Below are positions 7,251 to 58,872 of a stretch of 64,000 nt of DNA, piece by piece. The position numbers were made by a program, and so were the translations under genes. The notes under the pieces were generated by a model, which searched no databases, was not told where the DNA came from, and saw only the letters and a list, made by a program, of their open reading frames with translations. Numbering within the stretch: position 1 is the stretch's first letter; every line of letters starts with the position of its first letter. The stretch lies in the sequence record OR455461.1. One strand, written 5' to 3'. The DNA comes from Staphylococcus phage AH12.

Positions 7251-7303
7251 CCCCAATACCTATTAATTTAGGTATTGGGGAAATTTTATTATTTTTTTTT
7301 TTT
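7251..7303. terminator. bidirectional palindromic terminator element (CCCCAATACCTA ttaatt TAGGTATTGGGG plus T-run)
   Basis: 12-bp perfect stem between convergent genes 5493..7241 and 7302..8078. Member of a repeated element family. Confidence 0.65.
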
Positions 7304-8078
7304 ATAAAAGAGTACTTATTAAATCTGTTAAAAATCTTAATTGATTTTCATATGATAAATTACCATTTTTTAAATTATCTTCTAAATCTTCATCTATAAA
7401 AACTTTCATTGTGTTTAAGTCTATAATATATTCATTCTCTATAATATCTTTGTAATAACATGGTTCTAAATTATGATTTATCAAATTATTTTTAAATATT
7501 AGTAGTTTCTTGTAAAGATCTGTTTTATCTTTCTTTTTATCTTCCCAAAGACATTCAAATAAAAAATTAAATAAATATTTTTCATGATGTTCTTTAATTC
7601 CTTTCTGATAACCTTTAATTTCTATTCTATTATTATACAGATCAATATAATGTTCTTTATCTAATATATTGATGTAATTGTCAAATGTATCACTTTCAAC
7701 AAATCTAACATTATTCGATATTTTTAAATTATTACATTTTTTACCAATAACAAATATAGCATCTTTTTTTATACTTAAAATATCATTATCTGATAAATTA
7801 TTATTCATCATAAAAAATTTTCTAGCTATTTTAAATCCTTCTATTAGTGCATTATTCATATCTTTATTTTTTCTTAACATCTTACCAATGATTACATTTC
7901 TTTCGTACTTAGGTGTGTTTTTTAGCATATTGTAAGTTTCTTCATTTAACCAATTAGAATCATAAAGAATATTCATTCCTGCTGACTTTATATCATACTC
8001 AGTAATGATAGTATCTTTAATATATTTAACTTTAGATGTATAGTTCGTTTTTTGCCATAAATTAGACACTACCATCAC
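7302..8078 (-). CDS. hypothetical protein
   Basis: 258-aa ORF. Confidence 0.5.
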   Translation of the reverse strand: MMVVSNLWQKTNYTSKVKYIKDTIITEYDIKSAGMNILYDSNWLNEETYNMLKNTPKYERNVIIGKMLRKNKDMNNALIEGFKIARKFFMMNNNLSDNDILSIKKDAIFVIGKKCNNLKISNNVRFVESDTFDNYINILDKEHYIDLYNNRIEIKGYQKGIKEHHEKYLFNFLFECLWEDKKKDKTDLYKKLLIFKNNLINHNLEPCYYKDIIENEYIIDLNTMKVFIDEDLEDNLKNGNLSYENQLRFLTDLISTLL

Positions 8079-8094
8079 TCCTTTTCATATAATA

Positions 8095-8661
8095 TTATTG
8101 ATTAACAAATTTATGTTTAATCAAAGTTTTAATAAAGTCTTTTTCAGATAACCAATCTCCTGTATTATTATATACATTAATGTCAGTAACTTCATCTAGA
8201 TCTTCTTTTTCTTTAATCAAATCTTTTTCATTTCTTCCTTCACGTTTAATTTGATTATTTTCGTTAATAACTTGAATTGTTAATATATCTGATTCATTTC
8301 CGTATTTTTCTTTAATATCTCTTACAGAAGCGTCTCTACCTTCTCTATTTACAATGATTATATTTATATTGTATAAACCATTTTCTGGATATTTATAGCT
8401 TTGATCAATAGTACCATAATAATTTTCATAGAAATTGGTTTTAGCGATTAATTTATCTTTCATAGAATCATATTCTTCTTTATTTAAGAATACATAATCT
8501 TTTCCATCAATTTCATTATCTCTAATTGGTCTAGTTGTTACTTGATCTAATTTTTTGAAAGATAAATGTGGAAAATCTTTTTGGGTTACTAAATTCTCAG
8601 CCAAATAAGATTTTCCACTTCCTGAAACTCCACATAATAAAATAAATTTTTTCATATCCAA
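8095..8661 (-). CDS. guanylate kinase-like P-loop nucleotide kinase
   Basis: CGVSGSGKS Walker A. TTRPIRDNEIDGKDYVFL ... YGT matches the GMP-kinase signature. Confidence 0.6.
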   Translation of the reverse strand: MDMKKFILLCGVSGSGKSYLAENLVTQKDFPHLSFKKLDQVTTRPIRDNEIDGKDYVFLNKEEYDSMKDKLIAKTNFYENYYGTIDQSYKYPENGLYNINIIIVNREGRDASVRDIKEKYGNESDILTIQVINENNQIKREGRNEKDLIKEKEDLDEVTDINVYNNTGDWLSEKDFIKTLIKHKFVNQ

Positions 8662-8705
8662 ATCTCTCCTCAGAATTCAATTATTATAATATTTTATTCT
8701 TTGGA
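8650..8705 (-). promoter_or_regulatory. conserved upstream module (copy 2, minus strand)
   Basis: Reverse complement reads CCAAAGAATAAAATATTATAATAATTGAATTCTGAGGAGAGATTTGGATATGAAAA. Matches the module at 3403-3447. Confidence 0.4.
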
Positions 8706-8725
8706 AAATATAAAAAATTAATATC

Positions 8726-9487
8726 TTATTTTGCTTTAATACCATCATTTTCACGCAATTTTCCTATGAGATTAATAAATTCATTATAATTTTTATCTAC
8801 TACTTTTATATAATTGTATCCTGAATTTTTAGCAACTTCATCTTTTTTCTTTTCTTTAATTTCATCACGTTTTTGATAATGATTATTTTTACCTTTAATT
8901 TCTACTAATAAATTAAAATCAGGCATGTAAAAATCAGGCATGTAAAAATGTTCTTTATTAGCAAATTTATAAGGTAATGCTATATTTGATGGTGATAGTA
9001 CGTTATTTGATCTAAGATCCATTTGCGTATCTAAGAAGTTAAGGAAATCTTTTTCATAAGATCCTACATATTGAGTAGGCAATCCTTTGCCAGAACTCCA
9101 ATGATATTTACCTGAAATTCTTCTATTTTCTAACATTTTATTTTGCATATCTGGATCATTCAGTAAAGTTGTTTTACCGTATTTTTTATTCATTCTATCT
9201 TTAAATTGTTGTCTATATTTATCTTTACATATTTTATCGTGTACACGCTCATACTTTTCAGTCTGTTCATTAAATTTAGTTGGTTTTCCACATATAATAC
9301 ATGCACCATGAGTTTTTTTATTTCTATAATTAAAATATACATTTGCTGGAGATAAATCACCCAATTCTAAAGGATGTGTTTTTTCCATATGGTTATATAA
9401 ACCACTTTTGTTAATATACTTTTTATTACAGAAAGGACATTTATGATATTTTGTTGCCATTATTAAATTCACCGTTCTTTCTCTCAT
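8726..9487 (-). CDS. homing-endonuclease-like protein: N-terminal C2H2 zinc finger, C-terminal Vsr/DUF559-like PD-(D/E)XK domain
   Basis: CPFCNKKYINKSGLYNHMEKTH finger and LLVEIKGKNNHY motif (E-x-G-x-x-H) shared with the two other HE-like ORFs. Real start may be Met10 (9457), which has a GGTGA RBS. Contains a 15-bp tandem duplication (MPDFYMPDF). Confidence 0.5.
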   Translation of the reverse strand: MRERTVNLIMATKYHKCPFCNKKYINKSGLYNHMEKTHPLELGDLSPANVYFNYRNKKTHGACIICGKPTKFNEQTEKYERVHDKICKDKYRQQFKDRMNKKYGKTTLLNDPDMQNKMLENRRISGKYHWSSGKGLPTQYVGSYEKDFLNFLDTQMDLRSNNVLSPSNIALPYKFANKEHFYMPDFYMPDFNLLVEIKGKNNHYQKRDEIKEKKKDEVAKNSGYNYIKVVDKNYNEFINLIGKLRENDGIKAK

Positions 9488-9492
9488 TATTT

Positions 9493-9505
9493 ATAAGATG
9501 TTGTT
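9493..9505 (-). promoter_or_regulatory. candidate late promoter AACA-N6-TAT (minus strand)
   Basis: Plus ATAagatgtTGTT is the reverse complement of AACAacatctTAT, upstream of 8726..9487. Confidence 0.35.
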
Positions 9506-9581
9506 TCTATCGTTTATACATAAAAAATTAAGGATATATTATTTTATATAATATAATATTATATAGTATAAATATTGAAAG

Positions 9582-10034
9582 TTGGTGAATTATATCGCTA
9601 AAGATACAAAACATTTTAGAAAAGAAATATTTATGGCCCAAAATGTATATAACCGTCAAATGATGTTAGATGACATGGAAGCCATGGGACAGACGATACA
9701 GAATTTAATCATTATGAAACCTGGTACATATCCAAACACTCCTGGTTTAGGAGTTGGTATTGAAGATTATTTATTTGAAATTTTAGATAATGATACAATT
9801 ATGGATATAAGTGCCAATATAAATAATCAAATAACAAGATATATAGTTTCTCAGTCAGTAAATGTTGAAGTAAGAATAAGTAAATTGGAAAATAGTAATG
9901 CAAATATAAATAGTTTAAAAATAGATGTTAATTTATCTGATGTGTTAGATATAAATAACCAACAACTATTTTCATTTGTATTCGCTTCAAATAATTTAAC
10001 TAAGAAAATGATAACTAAATTAGTACTTGCTTAA
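9582..10034 (+). CDS. gp25/GPW-like baseplate wedge protein
   Basis: KPGTYPNTPGLGVGIEDYLFE matches the gp25-family core (rkGeR..P.fG..l..llFe). Start codon uncertain (TTG 9582 versus ATG 9633). Confidence 0.45.
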   Translation: MVNYIAKDTKHFRKEIFMAQNVYNRQMMLDDMEAMGQTIQNLIIMKPGTYPNTPGLGVGIEDYLFEILDNDTIMDISANINNQITRYIVSQSVNVEVRISKLENSNANINSLKIDVNLSDVLDINNQQLFSFVFASNNLTKKMITKLVLA

Positions 10035-10071
10035 ATATAAAATTAAAAGAAAAGAATGGAGAATATTATAA

Positions 10072-11523
10072 ATGGTAAGAAAAGCAGACAATAATGAACT
10101 TGATAACTTCATGTCAGAAGAGGAATTAAAAGAATTAGGCGTAGAAGCTGATAAAAAACAAGAAGAAACAAATAATAATCAAAATAAATCACAAAATAAT
10201 CGAAATAAAAATAATAATAGAAATAGTAATAAAAATAAACGTAAGAAAAATAATAATCAAAATAAATCGGCTATTCCGACTCAAAGAAATAAGAATAATC
10301 AAAAACAAGATGAAGAAGCTAAAACTGATCATATTGATTTTTCTCAACCAGAACCAGCTCAAAATTATAAAGACTATGATCATTTAACTCAAAAAGACGA
10401 AGAACCTAAATTATCTTCTCCAGCAGAAGATACTGAGTCTATGACTTTAGATCAATTTGAAAGTCATCAACAAGATCTTAATAAACATCAACAAAAAGTT
10501 CAAAAAGAAATTGAAGAACTTTCTAAAATTGATTCTAATGAAAGAAATAATATTTTAAGTAATATTAATGTAGATTTAAATAATATTGAAATTATTTCAG
10601 ATATTGACTATGATGTTAATAAAGAAAATACTAATTTTGTATTAAATAGTAAAGCTACTCATCAAGTAGTATTATCTCAATCAGCTTATATTGCTCATAT
10701 GGAAAGTTTACGTAACCAAGAAATTCTTTCTATTGCAGAATCTATTGATGATGATTATAATTCAGTTTTAAAAAGATATCAATTATACTTCCATAAAGTT
10801 AATACAAATTCATTAGGAATTAAAAACTTCTCAGATTTTGCTAAGTTAACTTCTGTATATGATGTTAGTACTTTAGAATACGGATTATATAATATCTCTT
10901 TCCCTGGTGAGACTAAGTTTGATATTAAATGTGGTAGTTGTAAAGAAGAACTTAAAGACGTTAAAATCTCTAACGATCAATTAATGTCATTTAAAGATGA
11001 AGAAGCTTATGAACATGTAACTAAAAATGTTCATAACATTACAACTAAAGAACAAAATGAAAAGCATTCACTAATTTCTAAAACTGAAAGAATCATGTTA
11101 AACGACTCTAAGATTATATTTGATATTATTACACCTACTATTGATAAACATTTAACTGTATTAGCAAGTATTCATACAGATGGATTGAGTCCAGAAGAAG
11201 CAGATAGATTTAAAAATAACTCAACTGCTTTAATGCATGTTAAAAATGTATACGTACCAGATCTAAAATCTCTTAAAGAAGATGGAAAACCTAAATTCCA
11301 AAAAATTCCTGAAGAATCACTTCAAGAAATTATGACAATTATTGAGAACTTATCTGTACGTGATGGGCATCAATTAACTGATAAGATATATGATTCTGTA
11401 GGTAAAAATGCTATAGAATATGCAATTAATGGAGCTAAATGTCCTAATTGTGGAAATGATCTTGGAAAAATTGATATCGATATGACAGAAGTACTTTTCA
11501 AGGAAGCTCTTCATTTGGTTTAA
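10072..11523 (+). CDS. hypothetical protein with N/K-rich N-terminus and C-terminal zinc ribbon
   Basis: Low-complexity NNNQNKSQNNRNKNNN stretch. CGSCKEE ... CPNCGND cysteine pairs. Confidence 0.55.
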   Translation: MVRKADNNELDNFMSEEELKELGVEADKKQEETNNNQNKSQNNRNKNNNRNSNKNKRKKNNNQNKSAIPTQRNKNNQKQDEEAKTDHIDFSQPEPAQNYKDYDHLTQKDEEPKLSSPAEDTESMTLDQFESHQQDLNKHQQKVQKEIEELSKIDSNERNNILSNINVDLNNIEIISDIDYDVNKENTNFVLNSKATHQVVLSQSAYIAHMESLRNQEILSIAESIDDDYNSVLKRYQLYFHKVNTNSLGIKNFSDFAKLTSVYDVSTLEYGLYNISFPGETKFDIKCGSCKEELKDVKISNDQLMSFKDEEAYEHVTKNVHNITTKEQNEKHSLISKTERIMLNDSKIIFDIITPTIDKHLTVLASIHTDGLSPEEADRFKNNSTALMHVKNVYVPDLKSLKEDGKPKFQKIPEESLQEIMTIIENLSVRDGHQLTDKIYDSVGKNAIEYAINGAKCPNCGNDLGKIDIDMTEVLFKEALHLV

Positions 11524-11591
11524 TCAATACTGTCGATAGTAAGCAATATAAGAAAAAAGTATATGAAGATGCCGCTTATCTTGCTTATCTA

Positions 11592-11789
11592 TTGGACCTC
11601 TTTGAAGGGCGTTTAAGTTTTAATGAAATACTTACTATGGATTTGAATATACTTAATTCAATGACAAAAGCTAAAGAAAAAGAAATGAAAAATAAACGAT
11701 TACAGCAGAAAAAGGTTGAATCTGCTACTAGAAAAGATTTTGATAATGGTATGCCTAAGTTGGATTTACCTAGACATCTTAATAGTTAA
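11592..11789 (+). CDS. small hypothetical protein
   Basis: 65-aa ORF, weak support. Confidence 0.3.
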   Translation: MDLFEGRLSFNEILTMDLNILNSMTKAKEKEMKNKRLQQKKVESATRKDFDNGMPKLDLPRHLNS

Positions 11790-11812
11790 TAAAGAAAGGA
11801 TGGATTTTCCAG

Positions 11813-12106
11813 ATGGTTCTTAGTACAAAAGAAAGTCAGAAAATCCTTCATATTTATGATTCACTAGTTGATAATGATGAAAATCTTTTATCATCTTTAT
11901 GTCATTCAAATAAAGGTTTACTTTTTGTAGACCTTTTATATGACATAGATTATAAAATTAAAGAAGGGTTTTCTAAAGATAATAATGAATTTAATTACAT
12001 TATATTAGAAACTGAAGAAAAAGAAAAATTAAAAGAAAAAGCTCTTTATAAAAAAAATTTAAAAATTGAAGACAACAAGGATTCTATAAGAATTTCAGTA
12101 GTATAA
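11813..12106 (+). CDS. small hypothetical protein immediately upstream of the chaperonin
   Basis: 97-aa ORF, GroES-sized, with no clear GroES motifs. Confidence 0.4.
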   Translation: MVLSTKESQKILHIYDSLVDNDENLLSSLCHSNKGLLFVDLLYDIDYKIKEGFSKDNNEFNYIILETEEKEKLKEKALYKKNLKIEDNKDSIRISVV

Positions 12107-12123
12107 AGGAGAGAATTGCTTAA

Positions 12124-13881
12124 ATGAGTGAACATAAGAAAAATAAAAAGTTGGTATCAAATATAGTAGATGAAGATTCATACAAAGAAATAGCTGAATT
12201 AACAATTGATACTATTTCTGGAACATTAATGAAATCATTAGGTTATTATGGTTCTACTACAATATTTGATGACGGTATTAGTAGATTTGTAACTAAAGAC
12301 GGATATAATATTTTAAAGAATATTAGATTTCAAGACACTATTGCTGCAGCAATATTAAACTTCATTAAAGAAGTTTCATTATCACTAGTTAAAACTGTAG
12401 GTGATGGATCTACTTCTTCAGTAATTAATTCTCAAGCTATGTTTAAAGAAATTAATGCTAGATTAAAAGAAAAAGATGATTTAGGTGGATTTTCTCGTAA
12501 AGAAATTTCAGATTCATTAAATAACATGAAAGATTTAATTACAGAAGGTTTAAAAGATAAATCTATAGAAATTAATGAAGATAATTTCTATAAATTAAAA
12601 AATATTGCTACAGTATCAAATAATAATGATGAAAAATTAGGTGAAATGGTTTACGAAATTTTTTCTCAAATAGGTAAAAATGGTTTTATCACACCTGAAA
12701 TTTCAGACAATGAAGAAGATTACTACTCATTAACTAAAGGTATTGAGAAAAATAATGCTCTATTAGATAATAAATTAATTAATGATAAAGAAAATCATTC
12801 AGTTGATTTTAATAAACCTCATGTAGTAGTAGTTAATGATAAACTAAAAGAAGAAGACATTAAATGGTGTAGTGAGATTGTTACTTCATTACAACCTTTC
12901 TCTAGTAAAGGTTTAGTATTTGTTGCACCTAGCTTTTCTAAAGAGTTTATTAGTTGGGTAAAAGTATTATTAAATGCTAACCGTAATAATGGAGGTTTAA
13001 AAGCAGCTGAAGCTGAATTTGAATTATCTGTAGCATCTTACAGTAAAGACCCTGAAGAATTAGAAGATCTTGCAATATATGTAGGTTCAAATGTTATTGA
13101 TATGACAATAGATCCAGAAGATTTTAAAAAGAATATTGTTGATAAATTAGAGGATTCTAGAAGTAATCCATTAAATTGGATGGAATTCCAACAACAATAT
13201 GTAGGGCGTACTGAAAGATTTGTAATTGATTCTTTTAAAACTCAAATCATTGAAGGTCATGGTAATAAAACTGAAACTGGTTCTAGAAGATTGAAAGATC
13301 GTATTGCAGAAATAAATAACGAAATTAGTTATTTTGCAGATATGAATTCAGAACAAGCTATTGGAGAGATTACTACATTACAACGTAGAGCTAATTCTTT
13401 AAATAGTGCAATTGCTAAATTATATGTGGGTGGTTCTTCTCAAGCAGAAAAAATCTCTCGTAAATACTTAGTGGAAGATTCAGTGCATGCTTCTAAATCA
13501 GCATTGAAATTTGGTTATGTATCTGGAGGAAATCTATCAGTAAATAAAGTTATCAAAGATATTGATACAGAAAAATTATCTGATTTAGATAGATTAGTCC
13601 TAGACTTAATTGATATTTCTTCTCGTGAAGTATATCACAAAGTATTAGAAAACTTTAATAGATTTAAAAAACCTGAAATAGAATCTATGACTCAGACTTG
13701 TATTAGTAAAGATGCAATTTATAATATTAAAACTGCCGAATATGAAGATGATGTAGAAACTGATATTATAAACTCTGTAGAAACAGATATTAAAATATTA
13801 GAAACTACAATTAGTATCATTGGTTTAATTTCATTAAGTAACCAATTCTTAACTAATTCTTTAATTATTCCACAAGATTAA
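12124..13881 (+). CDS. GroEL/Cpn60-family chaperonin-like protein
   Basis: TLG..G...I.D, TKDG and VGDGSTSSV (compare GroEL AGDGTTTATV), and C-terminal GYVSGGN (compare GVVAGGG), all in GroEL order. Confidence 0.6.
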   Translation: MSEHKKNKKLVSNIVDEDSYKEIAELTIDTISGTLMKSLGYYGSTTIFDDGISRFVTKDGYNILKNIRFQDTIAAAILNFIKEVSLSLVKTVGDGSTSSVINSQAMFKEINARLKEKDDLGGFSRKEISDSLNNMKDLITEGLKDKSIEINEDNFYKLKNIATVSNNNDEKLGEMVYEIFSQIGKNGFITPEISDNEEDYYSLTKGIEKNNALLDNKLINDKENHSVDFNKPHVVVVNDKLKEEDIKWCSEIVTSLQPFSSKGLVFVAPSFSKEFISWVKVLLNANRNNGGLKAAEAEFELSVASYSKDPEELEDLAIYVGSNVIDMTIDPEDFKKNIVDKLEDSRSNPLNWMEFQQQYVGRTERFVIDSFKTQIIEGHGNKTETGSRRLKDRIAEINNEISYFADMNSEQAIGEITTLQRRANSLNSAIAKLYVGGSSQAEKISRKYLVEDSVHASKSALKFGYVSGGNLSVNKVIKDIDTEKLSDLDRLVLDLIDISSREVYHKVLENFNRFKKPEIESMTQTCISKDAIYNIKTAEYEDDVETDIINSVETDIKILETTISIIGLISLSNQFLTNSLIIPQD

Positions 13882-13893
13882 AATTTAAACTCT

Positions 13894-13937
13894 ACCGAAA
13901 CCATTATGAATTTAATTAATGGTTTCGGTTTATTTTT
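13894..13937 (+). terminator. rho-independent terminator
   Basis: ACCGAAACCATTA / TAATGGTTTCGGT 13-bp stem followed by TTTATTTTT. Confidence 0.6.
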
Positions 13938-14056
13938 GCAAATCAATTAAAATTATATACATTTTTAAAATTTTGATTTTTATTAAACTTTTATTTGCTT
14001 TTTTATAAAATTTTTGTTATAATTAAAAATGTAGTAGAAAACAAGGAGGAATTTTA

Positions 14057-14824
14057 TTGGTTAATATGACAGCTTCACAATTCCTTAAAAACCCTACAGG
14101 AAAAGGTTCAGCTACAGTAGCTAGACGTGATCGTATTATTTTAGATATGAGAACACGATTTTCTTATCTATATAAGAAAAATAAAAGAAATTTTAAATTA
14201 AAGATATTTCTTCATCAAGAAAACTATTATTTCTATTTTCAAATACCTTCAGAAGATTACTTCAAAGATGAATTACATTATGACGTAATCATAGAATTCA
14301 GACCACCTAATGAAAAAGCAGCTAAAACTAAAGATCTTAATAATTATTTAATAAGATTTATAAGTAACTCTCCAAACTTTATGTTTACATATGGTTACTT
14401 ATATAATAAAGATGATTTACTTATTAGTTGGCTGAGTTATAAATTAGGTAAAAAAGCTTTAACTCAAGCTCCAGTTGTTAGAAACCCTAGACATGAATAC
14501 GGATTTGAGAAATCAGTTTATTTTGCACTATTGTATTTAGAAACAAATCCTAAAGCATTAAAAAATCCTTTACATTTAACATTACCAAATAGACAAAGAA
14601 TTAAGAAAACTTTTATGCCTTCAGATTTAAAGTTAAAAGAATACAATAGAATTAAAAAACAAAATACTCAAAAAGAAAAGAATAAAAATATTGTAACTAA
14701 GCAAATAAGTAATCAATTAGATAAAAGACGACAAGAACAGCAGAGGAAAACAAAACCAATCAATCGTAAATCCAAACCTATTGGAAAAGTTAAAAAGGTA
14801 AAGACTACCAAAAAGAGAAAATAA
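14057..14824 (+). CDS. hypothetical protein with strongly basic C-terminal tail
   Basis: TTG start 7 nt after AAGGAGGA. C-terminus is K/R-rich (RRQEQQRKTKPINRKSKPIGKVKKVKTTKKRK). Confidence 0.5.
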   Translation: MVNMTASQFLKNPTGKGSATVARRDRIILDMRTRFSYLYKKNKRNFKLKIFLHQENYYFYFQIPSEDYFKDELHYDVIIEFRPPNEKAAKTKDLNNYLIRFISNSPNFMFTYGYLYNKDDLLISWLSYKLGKKALTQAPVVRNPRHEYGFEKSVYFALLYLETNPKALKNPLHLTLPNRQRIKKTFMPSDLKLKEYNRIKKQNTQKEKNKNIVTKQISNQLDKRRQEQQRKTKPINRKSKPIGKVKKVKTTKKRK

Positions 14825-14914
14825 AGTTAAATATATATTATAAAAATGTATTTAATATAGTAATTTTAAATACGCTTATCATTTTATTAATTATCTAAGG
14901 AGAGTGTGTCTTAA

Positions 14915-16660
14915 TTGGAAAACAATAAAGTCGTAGAGAGAGAAGCTTTAAGAGAAGAAGATTTAAATTTGAATGAAATAGAAGAAAAGGTAGAAGAAAA
15001 GAAAGAAATACCTTTGTTATCTAGTAATGTTTTTAAATTAAAACCGGTTAAAGGTAATTTTGAGTTTACAAATAAGTATATTAATTCAATAGACTTAGAA
15101 ACTTATGAGAAAGAAGTAACTCAGAAAAATGGTAATAAGAAGATTGAAACTAAAATCATTCAGCGAGATGATATTGAAGAATTAATAAAATTTGTTGATG
15201 ATACTAATGATACATTATTCATTAATGTACATAAGATATTAAACAAACCTAATTTGAATACTGATTATGTTAATGACATATTTACAATCCAAATCAAACA
15301 ACGTTCTTATAAGAGTATATTAGAGTACATTGTCAATGACATGAATTTTATATTTAATGAAATACCACATATCATATTAAAATGTGCTAATATTTGTCAA
15401 AAAATATTTAGTAAAAAAGATGAATATAGTGAAGAAGAATTCTTCCAAGATATTCAAGATTTAATTGAAGATGAAGATTTAAGAAATGTTGTTTGTACTA
15501 TCGTTAATGATAATTATTCCATTGATTTAGATAAGACAAATGCTGAAGCAATGTTACAAAGTAAAAAAATCATTAAAAAAGATTTACAAGTTACAGACCA
15601 AGTCAATAAGTCATTTTTATCAACTGCATTATTGCAAAGATTTATTATACCTTTTATTAATCAGTATTATGTACTTACTAATAAATATCATTGTAAGAAT
15701 ACAGATGAAGATAAAGAGAGAACTAAGAATGGATATTTTAAAGCATTTAATTATTGTATGTGTATTACATCTTTAGATTATAATGTAGCTAATAATAATA
15801 AACTTTATAAGATAGTAGAACCTAAAGTAATTAAAACAAAATATAATGACAGAGTTATGTGGAAGTTTTTAGATTTACGTTCTATAGATCCAGATACAGT
15901 AATCAATAAAATAATGGATAAGATTATAAGACAAATAGTATGTAAATTATTAGTTGATACTTCTGCAGTATCTTATTTCACTTCTGTTATCAAATTCTCA
16001 ATAGATTATGAATTCCAATTCAAATATCCTATTAAGTTCAGATCAATTAAATTAACTACAGATGATGACGATGATGAAGATGGTTTTGATAAATTCCAAA
16101 TGAATAATTTCTTTAAGCAAAATGAAAGATTAGATATTGCTAATAAAATAACTATTGATCGTTATATCACTGAAAAATTAAAAGAATTAAATATCAGTGA
16201 AGAATATATTAAGCATTTATATGACAAATTTGATTATATAAATGATTTACAATCTCATTTAATTAAAGTTTATTTTGCTGAGCATTTTGATGTTAATACA
16301 AATGATAGAAAGAGCATTGTATCATTATTAGCAATTATGTCTAAAGAATTAATTGAAAATAATATGGATACTTTAGGTAAGATAGTTGCTTCAAAAGTAG
16401 TTTCTGGAACTAAAGCTAAGAATGTGGGTAAATTATCATTAGATGTTATTGCAGATAAATACTATGTATCTGCTTGGGATAAATATAAATTTATTAATGA
16501 TATTACTGAAAAAGATAATTTCATATTAAGAATTGCATTAGTTAATGGTTACAAGTTTAGTTATACTCCTGAAGATTTAAATTCTGAAGAAGAAGTAATT
16601 GCTGATATTGATAAAAAATATTTCATTTCTGAAGTATCACAATTTATATCAAATTATTAA
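14915..16660 (+). CDS. hypothetical protein
   Basis: 581-aa ORF. TTG start after AAGGAGAG. Confidence 0.55.
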   Translation: MENNKVVEREALREEDLNLNEIEEKVEEKKEIPLLSSNVFKLKPVKGNFEFTNKYINSIDLETYEKEVTQKNGNKKIETKIIQRDDIEELIKFVDDTNDTLFINVHKILNKPNLNTDYVNDIFTIQIKQRSYKSILEYIVNDMNFIFNEIPHIILKCANICQKIFSKKDEYSEEEFFQDIQDLIEDEDLRNVVCTIVNDNYSIDLDKTNAEAMLQSKKIIKKDLQVTDQVNKSFLSTALLQRFIIPFINQYYVLTNKYHCKNTDEDKERTKNGYFKAFNYCMCITSLDYNVANNNKLYKIVEPKVIKTKYNDRVMWKFLDLRSIDPDTVINKIMDKIIRQIVCKLLVDTSAVSYFTSVIKFSIDYEFQFKYPIKFRSIKLTTDDDDDEDGFDKFQMNNFFKQNERLDIANKITIDRYITEKLKELNISEEYIKHLYDKFDYINDLQSHLIKVYFAEHFDVNTNDRKSIVSLLAIMSKELIENNMDTLGKIVASKVVSGTKAKNVGKLSLDVIADKYYVSAWDKYKFINDITEKDNFILRIALVNGYKFSYTPEDLNSEEEVIADIDKKYFISEVSQFISNY

Positions 16661-16677
16661 AAAAAAAATAATTTTAA

Positions 16678-16727
16678 ATCCCATACACTCAATTATAGAG
16701 TGTATGGGATATTTTTGTTTTTTTTTT
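16678..16727. terminator. bidirectional terminator hairpin (ATCCCATACACTC / GAGTGTATGGGAT)
   Basis: 13-bp stem flanked by an A-run and a T-run, between convergent genes. Confidence 0.6.
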
Positions 16728-17868
16728 AGTTTCTGTTAATTTCTCCTTCAAATAAATAATCTATATTTATAAATGAATTTATAAATAATTCATCATTAAG
16801 TCTTTTTATTTCTAAGGGATCATTAAAATCTATTATTTGAGAAGATAAAATATTTTGTATCTTACTCCCATCAATTTCATCAACAATGTGTTTTTGATCA
16901 AATAACTTAAAGCGTTTGATTAACTCTTCTAATTTTTCTTCTTTTAAATAATCTTTAAAAGTATCTCTTAAAAGTGTCTCATTATTATATTCTTTTAAAG
17001 GAGATAATTTTGTATCTTCTATCATTCTATCTAATAGTTTAATTGTAGTTACTGGACCATATCCAGATATAGATTTGTATTCTTGATCTTTATGATCTGA
17101 AAATAAGTTAAAAATATCTATGATACCAGAATCAATATTCATAAAATCATTAATATCTTTCTTTGTACTGGAACTGAATATTTCCCCTTTTATATTTTCT
17201 TTAGATATAACCTTGCTCTTTTCAGACCCTCGTAATTCTAAAAGTAATAGTCTATCTTTATAATCTAATAATTGTCTATATATTTTATCATTACTTACAA
17301 TTAAAGAATAATCATTTTCATTATCTATAGTTGTTTTTTCCATAATATAATAAGGTAATATAGTAGGTTCTATTTTATAAGTATCAATATAATATGCATT
17401 AGGTATATACTTTACGATTGTTTTAACTAATTCTAATGTTATTGATATAGTCTTATTTATATCTCTATAAGTTATATTATCTTCATTCATTTTCTTGTAG
17501 TATTCTTTTTTATAATCAGGATCAAATGAAGTGTGATATATTGATTCTTTATCTGAATAGAATAAAAAGAATCTAGAATGCATATTTAATCTACTTGCAA
17601 AGAAATGTCTATAATGTCCTATAATATTTACTAATTCAACAACTAAATTTAATCTATTTTTAGTTTTTAAATGAGTAAAATTCTCTGAAACTTGAGGAGA
17701 ATATAATTGCTTAATAACATTATTAATGTCTATATAAATGGTTACATTGTTGTTATTAGTATTTCCTCTAAATCTTCCTCCTTCTATATAAGGTCTAACC
17801 AATTCTGTCATTTTATTGTAATTTAATTTTTTAGAATTTATTATTCTTTCAATTATTTCTACATCCAT
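16726..17868 (-). CDS. T4 RNase H-like 5'-3' exonuclease / flap endonuclease
   Basis: Colinear similarity to T4 rnh: YIDIN block, DKESIYH..DPDYKKEYYKK (compare DNAKSGYWRRDFAYYYKKNR), SLIVSNDKIYRQL (compare ILIISSDGDFTQL). Confidence 0.45.
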   Translation of the reverse strand: MDVEIIERIINSKKLNYNKMTELVRPYIEGGRFRGNTNNNNVTIYIDINNVIKQLYSPQVSENFTHLKTKNRLNLVVELVNIIGHYRHFFASRLNMHSRFFLFYSDKESIYHTSFDPDYKKEYYKKMNEDNITYRDINKTISITLELVKTIVKYIPNAYYIDTYKIEPTILPYYIMEKTTIDNENDYSLIVSNDKIYRQLLDYKDRLLLLELRGSEKSKVISKENIKGEIFSSSTKKDINDFMNIDSGIIDIFNLFSDHKDQEYKSISGYGPVTTIKLLDRMIEDTKLSPLKEYNNETLLRDTFKDYLKEEKLEELIKRFKLFDQKHIVDEIDGSKIQNILSSQIIDFNDPLEIKRLNDELFINSFINIDYLFEGEINRN

Positions 17869-17948
17869 TGATTATCTACATCCTTTCAGTATTATAATAT
17901 ATAATTAATTATTCATTTGTAAATTTATAAAAATCCATGTATAGCAAT

Positions 17949-17961
17949 AACATCATTTTAT
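17949..17961 (+). promoter_or_regulatory. candidate late promoter AACA-N6-TAT
   Basis: AACAtcatttTAT 8 nt before ATG 17969. Confidence 0.35.
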
Positions 17962-17968
17962 TAATGAT

Positions 17969-19261
17969 ATGAAGAAGAAAGTCGGTGAAAAAGAGTTGAT
18001 AGAAAGTTTAGTAAGTAAGAAATTGTTTAATATAAAACTTATAGCATTATATTCTGATGGAACAACAGAAGATATTTCTCAGTATGTTAAACGTTCTAGA
18101 ATTGAAATGAACTTCCAAGAGTACATTATGCCTTATTATAGATTTATATTAAGACCTCCTAAAGAGACTATTATAAAAATAAATACAGATAGAGAAAAAG
18201 TTGTATTTTCATTTAGTTCTAATATGACAACTAATGATACAGAAGATGTTAAATTAGATGTTCCTTTTCATGAAGAAATAATTTTAAAACCCTTAATGGA
18301 TTTAAATAATATTATTGATTATGATGATAGAATTACTAAAGATGATAATGATCGTAAAAATCTATTTGATAGATATGAAATGGTTGCAATATCAGAAGAA
18401 ATATTAAAAACAAATAAACCTATAGTATCTGGTATATACAATAATTGTACTGTAAGTGAAGTAGTTACTGATTTATTATCTCAATTTAATAATAGGGATA
18501 TATATTTTCATGAAGTTGATAATAATAGAATATATGAACAGATAATGTTATTACCTGCAAATATATATGATAATCTTAAATTCATAGATGACGTTTATGG
18601 AATATATGACAGAGAGATAAAATTATTTAATCATCATACAGGTTTAAATATATTACCTATGTCAGGATTTGATCCTAATACAATTGGTAAAGTTAAAATA
18701 CAAGTTAGGTTTCCATCAAATCAAACTGATGAAGAAATAATAGAAGGTAGTTACGAACAGATAAATCAATTAGATGATACTATAAGAAATAAAAACATAA
18801 TAACTAAAATTAATAATGTTAGTTTAGTGGATAATACAAGATTATTTAATGAACTAGTTGGATCTGAAATAAATCTGTTTGGAATAGATAATGAAAATGA
18901 AGGAACAAAATTATCTACATACAGAAGAAAAATAGAAGATCGTAATGGAGAAGTTAATAAAGTTAAAGTATATGATGATATATTTGATAACGATTACAGT
19001 TTAAAGAAAGAATTCAATAATAGTAAAGATATAATATTAAGAATGCAATTAAATGATGTAGACCTAACATTAGAAGATACATTTAAACAATTTGACATAG
19101 AATTCTTTAATGATTACTATAAACATTATAATGGAATATATGAACTTCTTGGAGTTAATCAAGAGTTTAAAAATGCTAGTAAAGCATTAGTTTTAAGTAG
19201 CTTTATAACTTTAAGAAAAGTATCAGATCATTCTTTTACAAAAAATAATCCCAATACCTAA
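17969..19261 (+). CDS. hypothetical protein
   Basis: 430-aa ORF. Stop codon lies inside the terminator hairpin. Confidence 0.55.
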   Translation: MKKKVGEKELIESLVSKKLFNIKLIALYSDGTTEDISQYVKRSRIEMNFQEYIMPYYRFILRPPKETIIKINTDREKVVFSFSSNMTTNDTEDVKLDVPFHEEIILKPLMDLNNIIDYDDRITKDDNDRKNLFDRYEMVAISEEILKTNKPIVSGIYNNCTVSEVVTDLLSQFNNRDIYFHEVDNNRIYEQIMLLPANIYDNLKFIDDVYGIYDREIKLFNHHTGLNILPMSGFDPNTIGKVKIQVRFPSNQTDEEIIEGSYEQINQLDDTIRNKNIITKINNVSLVDNTRLFNELVGSEINLFGIDNENEGTKLSTYRRKIEDRNGEVNKVKVYDDIFDNDYSLKKEFNNSKDIILRMQLNDVDLTLEDTFKQFDIEFFNDYYKHYNGIYELLGVNQEFKNASKALVLSSFITLRKVSDHSFTKNNPNT

Positions 19262-19282
19262 TTTTAATTAAAGGTATTGGGA
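19249..19282. terminator. palindromic terminator element (TCCCAATACCT ... AGGTATTGGGA)
   Basis: Family member. Overlaps the last codons of 17969..19261. Confidence 0.55.
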
Positions 19283-19288
19283 TTTAAA

Positions 19289-20110: not shown

Positions 20111-20128
20111 CTTATATTTCCACCTTTT

Positions 20129-20737: not shown

Positions 20738-20896
20738 TTCAAAGAAATCACCAACAGGGGATTCGTTTAAAGAATTTATATTTTCATTAAATAATATTGA
20801 TTCATTAACTATATTAATTTCTTCTTTAAGAATATCTTCCGTATAATTTTTATTAGATAATAAAATTTTAATACCCCTTTCTTATAAAAATAAATT

Positions 20897-20927
20897 GACC
20901 TAATACCCAATTTAAAGGTATTAGGTC
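20897..20927 (-). terminator. hairpin GACCTAATACC / GGTATTAGGTC
   Basis: 11-bp stem, a variant of the palindromic element family, after the stop of 20943..21749. Confidence 0.5.
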
Positions 20928-20942
20928 AATAAAAATTATTTA

Positions 20943-21749: not shown

Positions 21750-21783
21750 TTATTTTTAATTTATTTTTAATTTATTTTGATAT

Positions 21784-24591: not shown

Positions 24592-24619
24592 TGCCTTCCT
24601 TATTTTTATTAAGATTTTT

Positions 24620-46756: not shown

Positions 46757-46763
46757 AATTTAT

Positions 46764-46799
46764 AAGATGATTAATATCTATTTAATCATCTTTTTTTTA
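46764..46799 (+). terminator. rho-independent terminator after the beta gene
   Basis: AAGATGATTAA / TTAATCATCTT 11-bp stem followed by T8. Confidence 0.55.
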
Positions 46800-46803
46800 T
46801 TTT

Positions 46804-46816
46804 AACACTATAATAT
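46804..46816 (+). promoter_or_regulatory. candidate late promoter AACA-N6-TAT
   Basis: AACActataaTAT 32 nt upstream of ATG 46847, directly after the terminator. Confidence 0.45.
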
Positions 46817-46846
46817 TAATAAACATATAGAAAAGAGGAAAATATA

Positions 46847-48109
46847 ATGAATTTGGAATCATTGGAAGAATCATTAGATAAAGAATTTAATTTAACTAAT
46901 GAAGAATTAGAACGTAAGGTAGATACTGATAAAGAAGAGCCTATTTGTGAGGATTGTGGTTCTAAAAATTTATCTCTTAACGAATCAAATCAATTAGTAT
47001 GTGAAGATTGTGGTTCTGAGAACAGTAAAGTAGTCAAAGAAGAATTATTAACTGAAGGAATTAGTGAATTCTTTGCTAAACATGATGTTAAGAAAATAAC
47101 TAAAAAAGCAATTAAAAGAGGTGCTACTAAAGTTGTAGTTAAAGAAATTGCAGATTTAGATATGATTGAAAAACTTAAGAAAGATAGAAGAATCAAAAAG
47201 TTACTACCATTAATAGGTGTAGTTGGTATGGCAATAAATAAGAAAAGTCCAGCTCAGATCGTAGCAAATATCGCAATTATTGGGTTGGGTGCAGCACATA
47301 GTGAAATATCTTCTAAAACTGAAGCAGGTAAAGATAAAGGATTAACAATTACTTTCACTAATGAGGAAAAAGAACTTGTTCAGTCAATTGTTTTTACAAC
47401 CACTGGATTAGACTTTAATAAAGCTGATGTAAAGAAAACTATTAAATCTTATATTGATAAGAAAGATAAAGAATTAATTGTAGAAAATATGAATAAATTA
47501 AATGAGCTAGATGGTTTGATGGAAGATATTTATATTCAAGAAGGTAAAAAATTAGATAAAGCTAAAAAAGTGGCTAGAAAAATTTTTGTGGGATTAACTC
47601 CTGAAGAAATTAAAGAAAAATTTGCTATACGTGTAGCTAAAAAGAAATATAATATTGAAGTTAAAAAAGGCTATAAGATAAATTATTCTGACGCTAAATT
47701 GTTTACACATGCAACTACACGTAAGGATTCACATACTATAGATTACGAATTAAGTTTAGTATTTTCTTTTACTAAACCTAATGGTAAGAAAAGTTTCTTG
47801 GATAGAAGCGTTTTCATTTATAATCGTTTCTCAACAATGCAAGAAGCTGTATCATTCCAAAATAAACATGGAAAAGATTTATTAAAAATATTTAAAACAA
47901 CTAAAGCAGATAAAAAACCTAAGAAATCTAAATCAGTTAATGAAGGCATGGAAGAATTAGGTATTAATGAAGATTTTGAAGACAAATTATTTGAATATTT
48001 AGAAGGCGTTACAGAGCAAATCTTATCTGAAGAAAATAAAGAAGAACAACAAACTAATGAAGATATTACATCTTTAGAAGAATCTTTAGATAAAGAATTC
48101 AGTTTATAA
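46847..48109 (+). CDS. zinc-ribbon protein with terminal LEESLDKEF repeats
   Basis: CEDCGSKNLSLNESNQLVCEDCGS. The N- and C-termini repeat (S/T)LEESLDKEF(N/S)L. Paralogous to part of 49542..51458. Confidence 0.55.
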   Translation: MNLESLEESLDKEFNLTNEELERKVDTDKEEPICEDCGSKNLSLNESNQLVCEDCGSENSKVVKEELLTEGISEFFAKHDVKKITKKAIKRGATKVVVKEIADLDMIEKLKKDRRIKKLLPLIGVVGMAINKKSPAQIVANIAIIGLGAAHSEISSKTEAGKDKGLTITFTNEEKELVQSIVFTTTGLDFNKADVKKTIKSYIDKKDKELIVENMNKLNELDGLMEDIYIQEGKKLDKAKKVARKIFVGLTPEEIKEKFAIRVAKKKYNIEVKKGYKINYSDAKLFTHATTRKDSHTIDYELSLVFSFTKPNGKKSFLDRSVFIYNRFSTMQEAVSFQNKHGKDLLKIFKTTKADKKPKKSKSVNEGMEELGINEDFEDKLFEYLEGVTEQILSEENKEEQQTNEDITSLEESLDKEFSL

Positions 48110-48115
48110 TATTTA

Positions 48116-48145
48116 TCCCAATACCTAAATTAATAGGTATTGGGA
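48116..48145. terminator. palindromic terminator element (inverted orientation; loop aattaa)
   Basis: TCCCAATACCTA aattaa TAGGTATTGGGA. Confidence 0.6.
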
Positions 48146-48164
48146 TTTTATTAAATTTCAAGTT

Positions 48165-56487: not shown

Positions 56488-56572
56488 TTAAGTTTTTAAA
56501 GGGATTTTTATAAAATCCCTTTCTAACTTTTTTATATAATAAAATAATAAAGATGAAAGGAAAGAAAATTAT

Positions 56573-57136
56573 ATGTTAAAATTTAATGAAGATAATAATT
56601 TCATTATTATTAATGAAAAAGCATTTGTACCTGGTAAAGGTAAAGGTCCTTTTGTTAAACCATTTATAGCTACAGGATCTCAAATTCGTTTATATAGACG
56701 TTTAGGTTTACAAGTAACAGTAGTAGATGAAGATTATGAATATCCTAGTGATAAAGATAATAAAAAAGAAGAAAAAGCTGAAAAGAATGAAAAAGTCAGT
56801 GTTGAAAAAAGTAATGATACAACAACTGAAACAAAGAAAGATGAGAAAAGTGACTCTTCAGAAAGCAAAGAAGAGAGCGAAGTTTCTGAAGAAAGTAATG
56901 AAGAACAGTCAGTTGATGACAAAGTAGATGAACCTCAAGAAGATTCTAATGAAGAAAAAGAATCTGATAAAGTTGAAGAAGATAGTTCTGAAGAAGAATC
57001 AGAAATTAGTGAAGAAGATTTAAATGAATTCACTGTAGCTGAACTTAAAGAAGAATTAGATTCAAAAGGCGTTGAATATCCAAATAATGCACGTAAAAAA
57101 GATTTAATTGAATTATTAAAAGAAAACTCAAAATAA
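56573..57136 (+). CDS. acidic S/E-rich protein with C-terminal SAP-like motif
   Basis: N-terminal PGKGKGPFVKPF ... LY shared with 51628..52782. C-terminal FTVAELKEELDSKGVEYPNNARKKDLIELL fits LxxLxVxELRxELxxRGL. Confidence 0.5.
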   Translation: MLKFNEDNNFIIINEKAFVPGKGKGPFVKPFIATGSQIRLYRRLGLQVTVVDEDYEYPSDKDNKKEEKAEKNEKVSVEKSNDTTTETKKDEKSDSSESKEESEVSEESNEEQSVDDKVDEPQEDSNEEKESDKVEEDSSEEESEISEEDLNEFTVAELKEELDSKGVEYPNNARKKDLIELLKENSK

Positions 57137-57156
57137 GAAAGGAAGTTTAACTGATA

Positions 57157-58824
57157 ATGGCAACTACTAACTTTTATAAAGTGAAAGTATTAGATGAAAA
57201 AATAATTCCATTTTTAGGTTATAAAGAATACGGTCCTAGAGAAAATGTTATTCTTTCTGGTAGTGATTTAGCTAGTTTAAAACAAGCTGGTTGGACTATT
57301 ACTGATGTTACACCTTTACCGGAAACTGGAAAAATTAAATATGATAGACGTACTATTTATTTCAAAACTGAAGGAGAACAAGGTAAATTTATTAATGTTC
57401 CTTTCTATGTAAATCCTGTTGATGCTCGTGATGTATTTGGTTTACTTAAACTTGATTTAATCAAATTATCTGATGAAACAGTTGTAAGTACACATAATGT
57501 TAAAGATATTAAAAATGAAATATTAAGTATACCTACTTCTGATCTTGAAATTGGTGAAGAATATAAATTAAGATTATACTTCCCTAAAGATGCAGATGAA
57601 GATTATGATATAGCTATTTCTGAAGGTCATAAAGATCTTTTTGAAAGAGTTCATGATGAAGTAACTATTAAAGTAAAAGAATATGGTAAAATTACAGGTC
57701 GTCTTGTTCAATTACAACAAGATATTAATGTATATAAAGAATCTGTATTACCTTTAGAGAAAATTGTAGGATATAAAGACTTTGATTCTAAAGAGGTAAC
57801 TCCTATAAGTAAAGAGAATTTATTACAATTATTATCAGTTGAAGTTAGTGATACTAGCTTTGCTAAATTTGAACGTAATAAAAATCGCTTATTCTTCTAT
57901 AGTAAAGAAGGAAAAATAGTTGTTAAAGTTATTGAAAAGAATATTCAAGACAATATCATTAACTTTAACGTACGTATTTTAAGTGAAGAAACAGCACAAA
58001 AAGAAATTGATAAAAAACTTGAATATTCTGTTTATAATCCTGAAGATGGAAAATTTGAAAGCATTAATCAAACTAAAAGTATAACTGTTACTCCAGAGAC
58101 AGTTAATATTGAAGCTGAAGGAACTCAAAAATTAGAAGTTACTACTGAACCAGAAGGAAGAAAAGTGAGCTTTGAGTTAAAAGACGGTTCTGAATTTGCT
58201 TCATTAGATAATAAAGGAAATATTACTGGTATTTCTGAAGGAACTGCAACTGTTACAGTTAAATCAGATAATGTTTCTAAAGATGTAAAGGTTAATGTAA
58301 GCCGTTTAAAGACTAAGAGTCTAACTGTTACTCCAGAAGAAATTAACATAGATGCAGAATCAACTCAACAGTTAGACGTTAAAATTCAACCAACTACAAA
58401 CTCTGTAAGTTATTCTATTACTGAAGGATCTGAATTTGCTTCAGTTAATAACAGTGGTCTTGTAACTGCTAAAGCTGTAGGAACTGCTAAAGTTAAAGTA
58501 AGTTCTGATTCCATTAGTAAGACAGTTAATGTTAATGTAACTAGAGTAAAAACTAAAACTCTAAATGTTACTCCTAATAGTGTTGATATTAAAGATAATG
58601 AAACACAACAATTAACGGTAACTACGGATCCTAAAGGAAACCCTGTAAGCTATTCTATCTCTGAAGGATCTGAATTTGCTTCAGTTAATAATAGTGGTCT
58701 TGTAACCGCTATATCTGAAGGAACTGCTAAAGTTAAGGTTGTTTCTGATAGTGTAAGTAAAGATGTTAGTATTAACATATCTACTTCACAAGTAGAAGAA
58801 TCTCCTGAAGAACCTTTAGAATAA
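57157..58824 (+). CDS. virion surface protein with four Big_2 (bacterial Ig-like) repeats
   Basis: Four ~90-aa repeats containing ITEGSEFASVNNSGLVTA ... GTAKVKV. Confidence 0.6.
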   Translation: MATTNFYKVKVLDEKIIPFLGYKEYGPRENVILSGSDLASLKQAGWTITDVTPLPETGKIKYDRRTIYFKTEGEQGKFINVPFYVNPVDARDVFGLLKLDLIKLSDETVVSTHNVKDIKNEILSIPTSDLEIGEEYKLRLYFPKDADEDYDIAISEGHKDLFERVHDEVTIKVKEYGKITGRLVQLQQDINVYKESVLPLEKIVGYKDFDSKEVTPISKENLLQLLSVEVSDTSFAKFERNKNRLFFYSKEGKIVVKVIEKNIQDNIINFNVRILSEETAQKEIDKKLEYSVYNPEDGKFESINQTKSITVTPETVNIEAEGTQKLEVTTEPEGRKVSFELKDGSEFASLDNKGNITGISEGTATVTVKSDNVSKDVKVNVSRLKTKSLTVTPEEINIDAESTQQLDVKIQPTTNSVSYSITEGSEFASVNNSGLVTAKAVGTAKVKVSSDSISKTVNVNVTRVKTKTLNVTPNSVDIKDNETQQLTVTTDPKGNPVSYSISEGSEFASVNNSGLVTAISEGTAKVKVVSDSVSKDVSINISTSQVEESPEEPLE

Positions 58825-58842
58825 AAAAAAAATAATAAAATT

Positions 58843-58872
58843 CCCCAATACCTAAATTAATAGGTATTGGGG
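58843..58872. terminator. bidirectional palindromic terminator element (CCCCAATACCTA aattaa TAGGTATTGGGG)
   Basis: Flanks identical to the copy at 30423. Confidence 0.65.

Follow-up and report, generated by a model that had tools for sequence, protein, structure and literature searches.

Repeated intergenic palindromes, probably bidirectional terminators, mark convergent gene ends and the breakpoints of a 23-kb inversion in Staphylococcus jumbo phages

The 64,000-nucleotide stretch of the Staphylococcus phage AH12 genome analysed here (record OR455461.1; hereafter the window, with positions counted from its first nucleotide) is dense in genes, has a G+C content of 25% and carries a family of short palindromes that lie mainly between converging genes. 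Approximately half of the terminator-like hairpins in the window, and the majority of the ones at convergent junctions, have one common stem and loop. An earlier note, made from the sequence alone, had described these palindromes as bidirectional terminators and had suggested that their conservation reflects a protein-binding site or a mobile element of the REP or MITE type. Our analysis indicates that they are probably Rho-independent (intrinsic) terminators whose copies are kept alike by recombination with one another, with neither a dedicated protein nor transposition involved. Two of the copies coincide with the breakpoints of a 23-kb inversion relative to seven related Staphylococcus jumbo phages.

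By megablast, the window is 95% identical to the Staphylococcus jumbo phages Machias (MW349128) and vB_StaM_PB50, and approximately 79% identical to seven further phages (S6, PALS_2, Madawaska, MarsHill, SA1, LY01 and UFV_DC4), referred to below as S6-like. Machias, PB50 and the S6-like phages belong to the AR9/PBS1-like group, whose members encode two multisubunit RNA polymerases (RNAPs); genes for RNAP subunits also lie inside the window, for example at 41934-45050 and 14915-16660. For the census in relatives we used the complete genomes of Machias and S6, assembled from their annotated records. Convergent junctions were taken from gene calls based on open reading frames (ORFs), which gave a total of six in the window.

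When the window was searched for CCCCAATACCTA with up to two mismatches, 13 matches were found against 1.4 expected, and none of 100 shuffled sequences reached 13. Twelve of these matches pair into six palindromes, at 7251, 19249, 30423, 37715, 48116 and 58843. The nine palindromes that had originally been listed at gene 3' ends all exist as perfect inverted repeats with stems of 12-15 base pairs (bp), as seen in the sequence printout and in a hairpin census, and the stem variants described as compensatory, CCCCTAACCTA at 35327 and GACCTAATACC at 20894, proved to be perfect palindromes themselves. Six of the nine sites have a loop of 6 nucleotides (nt); the loops at 16676, 20894 and 19247 measure 7, 9 and 12 nt, respectively. 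Every site is intergenic and lies shortly after stop codons, with the exception of 19247, where the palindrome covers 14 nt, including the stop codon, of the gene at 17969-19261. We additionally found a tenth member at 37754-37811, with a AACCCTAACCT stem and a 26-nt loop. The window holds eight to ten copies in total. The variant at 16676 (ATCCCATACACTC), which had been proposed as a related copy at 16678, is only loosely related to the family.

Four copies, at 7250, 30422, 35327 and 58840, have in common an asymmetric unit of approximately 65 nt, composed of TTAAAAATATAA, the palindrome and AATTTTATTATTTTTTTTT. The long conserved flanks that the earlier note ascribed to the elements in general are present at these four sites and not elsewhere. 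Both loop types, TTAATT and AATTAA, occur as described, but they do not report the orientation of the element: the copies at 30422 and 58840 have their flanks in the same orientation and their loops in opposite ones. Loop orientation is uncoupled from the asymmetric flanks.

The placement of the family is strongly biased. A strict member is present at five of the window's six convergent junctions, and the variant at 16676 occupies the sixth (Fisher p = 1e-4). The gaps at these junctions are 27-65 nt long and are filled by the element, with the edge of the stem no more than 21 nt from the flanking stop codons at 6/6 junctions. The remaining four members (20894, 37715, 37754 and 48115) are situated between genes of the same direction. 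A genome-wide census and comparison with relatives, which had been put forward as a check, gave 19 family-like hairpins in Machias and 23 in S6. Twelve of the 19 lie at the 21 called convergent junctions of Machias (Fisher p = 2.5e-11), and 10/23 at the 18 convergent junctions of S6 (p = 6e-8). Among intragenic hairpins there was no family match in the window, in Machias or in S6. The family can be read as a list of likely operon ends for this group of Staphylococcus jumbo phages.

At the convergent junctions, the leftmost member (TCCCCAATACCTA-TTAATT-TAGGTATTGGGGA, 7250-7281; approximately 7235-7300 with its conserved flanks) separates a DnaB-like helicase gene (5493-7241, plus strand) from the gene at 7302-8078 (minus strand) and forms the left breakpoint of the inversion. 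Its counterpart at the right breakpoint has the same stem and loop (TCCCCAATACCTA-TTAATT-TAGGTATTGGGGA, 30422-30453) and stands between 29422-30402 (plus) and 30462-30932 (minus). The distant variant AAATCCCATACACTC-AATTATA-GAGTGTATGGGATAT (16676-16712) separates the gene for the specificity subunit of the non-virion RNAP (14915-16660, plus) from 16726-17868 (minus), and a member with a AATCCCAATACCT stem and the 12-nt loop (19247-19284) lies between 17969-19261 (plus) and 19289-20110 (minus). Further along are the variant TCCCCTAACCTA-TTAATT-TAGGTTAGGGGA (35327-35356), between 34619-35311 (plus) and 35368-37626 (minus), and the member ATTCCCCAATACCTA-AATTAA-TAGGTATTGGGGATT (58840-58875), between 57157-58824 (plus) and 58882-59730 (minus). 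Of those between genes of the same direction, three are on the minus strand: the variant ATTGACCTAATACC-9 nt-GGTATTAGGTCAAT (20894-20930), between the minus-strand genes 20129-20737 and 20943-21749; the variant TCCCAATATCTA-ATTTAA-TAGATATTGGGA (37715-37744), upstream of a gene for a 752-residue endonuclease-like protein and downstream of tRNA-like genes; and the additional member AACCCTAACCT-26 nt-AGGTTAGGGTT (37754-37811), which came from the hairpin census. The fourth, ATCCCAATACCTA-AATTAA-TAGGTATTGGGAT (48115-48146), is on the plus strand between two plus-strand genes.

The anatomy suggests how such an element would act. A perfect palindrome of 12-15 bp, whose base reads CCC(C)/GGG(G) and whose loop is usually the 6-nt TTAATT or AATTAA, sits between A-rich and T-rich runs. 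Transcripts of either strand would thus finish with an identical hairpin and a U-rich tail behind it, and one element would close two converging transcription units. The claim that either strand sees a hairpin and a U-run was borne out by folding: the bare stem-loops of the ten members reach -16 to -23 kcal/mol on both strands, with the 37754 copy reaching -26 on one strand, and the 12 nt past the stem contain 4-11 T overall and 5-11 T per strand at the six convergent-junction members. Members between genes of the same direction have fewer T on the side that is not transcribed. Across the six convergent junctions, folding energies amount to about -17 to -24 kcal/mol on both strands. When four copies were folded with their flanks, energies were -21 to -24 kcal/mol with z = -3.9 to -5.7, and none of 200 shuffles was as good. 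Individual folds gave -23.3/-22.9 kcal/mol at 7250 (z ~ -4.8), -23.8/-22.4 kcal/mol at 30422 and -23.3/-23.7 kcal/mol at 58840. The A-run and the U-run are able to pair and thereby to lengthen the stem, as in classical two-way terminators.

Bidirectional Rho-independent terminators occur at convergent genes in bacteria and phages, and ordinary ones likewise consist of a GC-anchored perfect hairpin with an A-run and a T-run after two converging stop codons. Unlike the AH12 elements, they are not copies of one another. In addition, the enzymes that transcribe the AH12 elements are presumably the phage's own non-canonical RNAPs rather than that of the host. A generic terminator scan of positions 5001-25000 gave 10 sites against 2.7 expected, among them 7250 (both strands), 16678 (plus) and 20930 (minus). 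In the GenBank record of Machias the orthologous sites are labelled 'terminator' by software prediction, often on both strands and otherwise on one, and predicted terminators are likewise annotated in the records of MarsHill and Madawaska. The function we propose is in this respect an ordinary one, already annotated by prediction in the sister genome. The papers on MarsHill, Madawaska and Machias, on UFV_DC4 and on SA1 make no mention of terminators, palindromes, repeats or inversions, and Rfam at its gathering thresholds gave no match in the window except two tRNA-like genes. AR9, a phage of the same group, also has two multisubunit RNAPs, and RNA-seq of this phage revealed strong termination at the hairpin terminators predicted for the ends of its operons (PMC5312081). 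This is the best available evidence that phage polymerases of this class obey hairpin terminators. Junction placement, predicted folds, U-rich tails, the Machias annotation and the AR9 analogy all favour the original reading as bidirectional terminators.

Why the copies resemble each other is a separate question. One answer is that the non-canonical phage RNAPs or a dedicated phage protein recognise the hairpin, above all the CCC base and a hexaloop of the UUAAUU type, in which case selection would help to keep the sequence, and recognition could serve termination, antitermination, 3'-end processing or RNA protection. We consider this unlikely. The loops do show a preference of the expected kind, with 6-nt loops in 36/74 intergenic hairpins of Machias and 28/64 of S6. 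At same-direction junctions the transcribed strand carries TTAATT, TTAACT or TTAAAT in 10/21 and 10/17 cases, respectively, and the antisense AATTAA in a single case each; at convergent junctions the loop is TTAATT or AATTAA in 10/13 (Machias) and 10/11 (S6). Listeria phage LPJP1 and Bacillus phage BpSp have TTAATT loops as well, on unrelated stems; loops of the TTAATT type were noted at 20005, 4585, 1364 and 16061 (LPJP1) and at 3388 and 8601 (BpSp; local piece coordinates in both), and one convergent junction of LPJP1 holds CTCCCATAACCTA-TTAATT, a near match to the family. However, stems differ substantially among members (AATACCTA, TAACCTA, TAATACTA, ATACACTC), too much for a strict recognition site, which argues against the protein-binding cause of conservation that had been suggested, and at convergent sites the loop takes either orientation relative to the flanks. 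Moreover, BpSp and LPJP1, whose RNAPs are homologous, lack the stem family and mostly have other loops, the LPJP1 match is borderline (E = 6e-3), and no candidate binding protein was identified.

We had considered whether the same family is present in these two phages. For BpSp this was dropped, as the 64 kb surveyed contained no repeated stems; its terminator-like hairpins have unrelated stems and varied loops, unlike those of AH12. The 140 kb of LPJP1 contained the one near match at a convergent junction and otherwise diverse stems. Base composition alone does not explain the hexaloop preference in jumbo phages of three host genera. There is a small chance that the hairpin grammar (CCC/GGG base, stem of approximately 12 bp, UUAAUU-type hexaloop that favours the transcribed strand) amounts to a virus-specific code for termination or 3'-end formation in the AR9-like jumbo phages of Staphylococcus, Listeria and Bacillus, with their non-canonical sigma-less multisubunit RNAPs or a dedicated phage factor as its readers. 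The conservation of the hexaloop across the three genera offers a testable lead on how these unusual RNAPs terminate.

The explanation that we favour, exchange among intrinsic terminators, draws on the comparison of orthologous sites. All ten window copies are present at matching positions in Machias, and matched family sites of Machias and S6 hold a family hairpin in both genomes, the sole exception being window 37715 (Machias 166555). Other orthologous sites, such as those at 16676 and 20894, retain stems of their own in S6, and where stem changes are present they are paired. The S6 orthologue of 16676 is TACCCATACACTC, with paired changes at the base of the stem, and that of 20894 is GACCTAATAC, with the stem kept. 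At the orthologue of 19247 (S6 134976) the stem is identical and the loop different; the counterpart of 37754 has the same stem with an 11-nt loop; the orthologue of 35327 is ACCCTAACCTTA, with the loop flipped; and that of 58840 is TCCCCTAACCTTA. In S6, five loci carry CCCCTAACCTTA, in which a paired T/A insertion leaves the palindrome perfect. The Machias orthologues of these five loci carry CCCCAATACCTA, CCCCTAACCTA or CCCAAACCTAA, none of them with the insertion.

Copy numbers of the variants, compared across nine public genomes, were divided in the same manner. A Machias-type 49-mer occurs at 9 and 11 places in Machias and PB50, respectively, and at 1-5 places in the S6-like phages, while an S6-type 49-mer occurs at 5-7 places in the S6-like phages and at 2-3 in Machias and PB50. 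Within Machias, five flanked copies show 84% identity to one another; identity falls to 78% when they are compared with their S6 orthologues and to 75% with non-orthologues, in a sample of five loci. In one orthologous pair, Machias 168890 (AATTAA) and S6 117750 (TTAATT), all six loop positions differ while the flanks are kept, which points to inversion or replacement of the loop rather than to a series of point mutations. The variants follow lineage and not locus. The lineage-specific variants, the loop flips and the inversion described below together suggest recombination among copies, and homologous recombination or gene conversion would be the homogenising process.

These observations also bear on whether the copies could have arisen independently, an AT-rich genome leaving few stable two-way hairpins to choose from, so that no homology or exchange would be needed. 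The G+C content of 25%, the CCC base and TTAATT loop found on many unrelated stems, and the same general grammar in distant phages would all fit such convergence. We nevertheless regard it as quite improbable: four window copies share identical or near-identical stems of 12-13 bp together with an asymmetric flank of approximately 15-20 nt on each side, five S6 loci have the same paired T/A insertion, which their Machias orthologues all lack, and the copy numbers of the two variants are split by lineage in the nine phages. Furthermore, the genome also makes use of other stems, including those of a second family (GAGGTAATGACA; family B, the palindromes of the window being family A), and the constraint is therefore a loose one.

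The most conspicuous rearrangement associated with the family is the inversion. In BLAST comparisons with S6, the window aligned in three segments, the outer two (1-7303 and 30399-64000) on the minus strand and the middle one (7234-30466) on the plus strand, and this was the single inversion in the whole Machias-S6 comparison of approximately 270 kb. The inverted block (7282-30421; 23 kb) distinguishes the gene order of AH12, Machias and PB50 from that of the seven S6-like phages and BpSp. At the two breakpoints, neighbouring alignments overlap for 70 and 68 nt, and the overlaps span exactly the elements at 7250 and 30422, with sequence neither gained nor lost there. The alignment of each of the seven S6-like phages is broken at the element; those of Machias and PB50 run through the window without a break. 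In BpSp, the Bacillus outgroup, the homologue of 7302-8078 faces the gene after ribonuclease H, as it does in S6, and the arrangement of the window is therefore the derived one.

The flanks of the two copies are also in the orientation that an inversion would require. Among the five flanked copies only the one on the helicase side, at 7250, has its asymmetric flanks reversed, and with the copy at 30422, whose flanks are opposite to it, it forms a true inverted repeat of approximately 65 bp. Recombination between the other four, which are direct copies, would delete essential genes. The argument that the two elements gave rise to the inversion is read from the alignment, and it rests on the exact overlap and on the inverted orientation of the copies. 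Terminators probably served in this way as rearrangement substrates, the inversion parting the Machias/PB50 clade from the S6/MarsHill clade and genes having come or gone beside the elements, which is useful to know when these therapy-candidate phages are engineered or compared.

In outline, copies of 30-65 bp would recombine with each other, and this would homogenise them within a lineage (concerted evolution), flip loops, create points of gene gain or loss and, where two inverted copies were involved, produce the 23-kb inversion in an ancestor of AH12, Machias and PB50. Recombination genes annotated in these phages include a UvsX-like recombinase, a RusA resolvase and SbcCD-like genes. That hairpin cleavage of the palindromes triggers the exchange is speculation on our part. 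A metallophosphatase gene in the window (4320-5465) was named SbcD-like in the SA1 paper, and an SbcC-like ATPase is encoded elsewhere in these genomes; together the two would make a hairpin-cleaving nuclease, and we can only speculate that it could matter to recombination at palindromes.

Several considerations weigh against the combined picture of intrinsic terminators homogenised by exchange. What we observe directly is the sequence family, its geometry and thermodynamics, the lineage-specific variants and the inversion breakpoints; termination at the elements we infer. Only five loci, a small sample, underlie the paralogue-orthologue gap of 84% against 78%. The grammar of a CCC base and a TTAATT loop is also found on unrelated stems here and in LPJP1 and BpSp, so that part of the similarity may reflect functional constraint rather than descent or conversion. 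Finally, if viable inversions need convergent junctions, the chance that both ends would fall on family members is approximately 0.3 (12/21), which by itself is no improbable outcome.

Genes that vary between close relatives are found beside several elements. The gene at 19289-20110, which directly adjoins the element at 19247, is absent from S6. CPT_Machias_162 (327 residues) is absent from the window and adjoins the Machias orthologue of 48115, making that junction convergent, and a stretch of approximately 46 nt that holds 37715 is absent from S6. A comparison of the two sides of the inserted genes, where a clear repeat of the element would indicate cassettes of the PeSL type discussed below, gave only low-complexity, AT-rich similarity. 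Family A stands at the breakpoints of the inversion and beside genes gained or lost between relatives, namely the gene at 19289-20110 and Machias gene 162.

The other cause of conservation that had been suggested is a mobile non-autonomous element (REP/BIME- or MITE-like) spread by a phage- or host-encoded transposase. With approximately 19-23 dispersed near-palindromes per genome, one indel that consists of the element only (the ~46 nt at window 37715 relative to S6) and four Machias genes annotated as transposase (TnpB-like), such an origin has some appeal, but we judge it highly improbable. Positions are conserved between the clades: ten of ten window copies are at matching Machias positions, and the matched Machias-S6 sites all hold a family hairpin except at 37715, where no target-site duplication is evident. 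Of the four TnpB-like genes, three are part of 1.6-kb repeats with ends that are alike but lack the palindrome, and the fourth adjoins a family B hairpin that is present without an annotated transposase at the orthologous S6 site (223124). A Y1/RAYT-type transposase is absent from the Machias annotation, which was not supplemented by a dedicated hidden Markov model search for Y1. Exact copies are likewise absent from GTDB species genomes and from IMG/VR: an exact-pattern scan for CCCAATACCTA-N6-TAGGTATTGGG gave 0 matches in 185,579 bacterial species (one genome each), and the same kind of scan of IMG/VR found no copy of the palindrome.

Two related ideas were set aside. An origin of the palindrome in the host or another bacterium was dropped as there was no exact-pattern match in the GTDB species genomes, and a link between the palindrome and the TnpB-like 'transposases' was dropped as the ends of the 1.6-kb repeats lack it. 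The three TnpB-like genes concerned are located at 78006-79199, 205785-206987 and 228150-229355 in Machias, and the 1.6-kb repeats that contain them have 82-84% identity among themselves. At least one is situated within the gap that separates the joined parts of a gene for a virion protein. The repeat ends carry GATATAGTCT-type motifs that also occur near other split genes, and we suspect that these motifs are group I intron sequences.

Near-palindromes scattered between genes, frequently at their 3' ends, are well known from the REP/BIME elements with their RAYT transposases and from MITEs. Like the AH12 family, these elements may act as terminators and recombination sites. The AH12 family differs in that no associated transposase, target-site duplication or host copies were found, and in having a low copy number (approximately 20) and positions that the two clades share; it does not conform to the REP/RAYT and MITE patterns we looked for. 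By analogy, its closest precedent is the PeSLs (promoter-early stem-loops) of T4-type phages, repeated units of a promoter and a stem-loop that terminate transcription and shuffle modules by recombination (PMC2839356, PMC4122927). PeSLs and family A are both short, repeated, conserved intergenic cassettes with a terminator stem-loop, both lie beside genes that vary between close relatives, and both are sites of homologous recombination, a role for which the inversion and the gene indels beside the elements argue in the case of family A. In contrast to PeSLs, which combine a sigma-70 promoter with a stem-loop in approximately 100 bp, lie in hyperplastic regions and are used by the host RNAP, family A is a perfect palindrome that lacks a promoter motif, and it occupies mainly convergent junctions in conserved gene blocks. 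The early-promoter motif TATATTAT precedes only one family A copy (Machias 122475, S6 73914); most hairpins linked to this promoter motif belong to family B. The rearrangement also differs, being an inversion in family A and cassette excision or mini-circle formation in PeSLs. The evolutionary behaviour of the family matches a known kind of phage element, and nothing in our findings overturns current understanding.

Additional variable features were noted in the window. The 752-residue protein encoded at 35368-37626 (minus) matched zinc-finger and endonuclease-like entries (PHROG homing/HNH endonuclease and, weakly, Pfam MTES_1575), and its gene has a family member on either side (35327 and 37715). 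Nearby, two tRNA-like genes at 38178-38266 and 38625-38696 (minus) scored 60 and 46 bits as tRNA in Rfam, with an anticodon that ARAGORN left undetermined; the corresponding region of Machias has two tRNA-Asn genes flagged as pseudogenes. A 415-residue ORF at 38780-40027 (minus) matched DUF7487 and, weakly, a restriction-endonuclease-like domain (MTES_1575). The stretch 38792-40063 is missing from Machias and adjoins the split gene for the virion-RNAP beta-prime subunit, and the ORF probably encodes a free-standing or intron-borne homing endonuclease. At 46757-46846, after the RNAP beta gene, the window has the hairpin AAGATGATTAA-7 nt-TTAATCATCTT where Machias has ATATCCCAATGAT-7 nt-ATCATTGGGATAT at the same position, and the adjoining stretch 46904-47518 has no match in Machias. 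On sequence, a terminator appears to have been swapped here between close relatives.

Family B has the form GAGGTAATGA(T)CA-loop-TG(A)TCATTACCTC and is found mostly in long same-strand blocks of small genes. We located it in Machias at 7713, 42944, 97264, 231958, 233861, 244369, 245116, 252646, 261841, 267132 and 272146, and in S6 at 48168, 193915, 201838, 223124 and 229161; the window holds no clear copy. Several copies begin 0-12 nt past the AR9-like early-promoter motif TATATTAT, which brings family B nearer to PeSLs than family A, and the arrangement is reminiscent of a promoter and stem-loop composite or of a 5'-end hairpin on early transcripts. A small hairpin in the window, GAAGAGAGA-6 nt-TCTTTCTTC at 25287-25325 (minus), similarly lies right after an early-promoter-like motif (TATATTATAATAATG) at a divergent junction, and this arrangement of hairpin and promoter is kept at Machias 178942.

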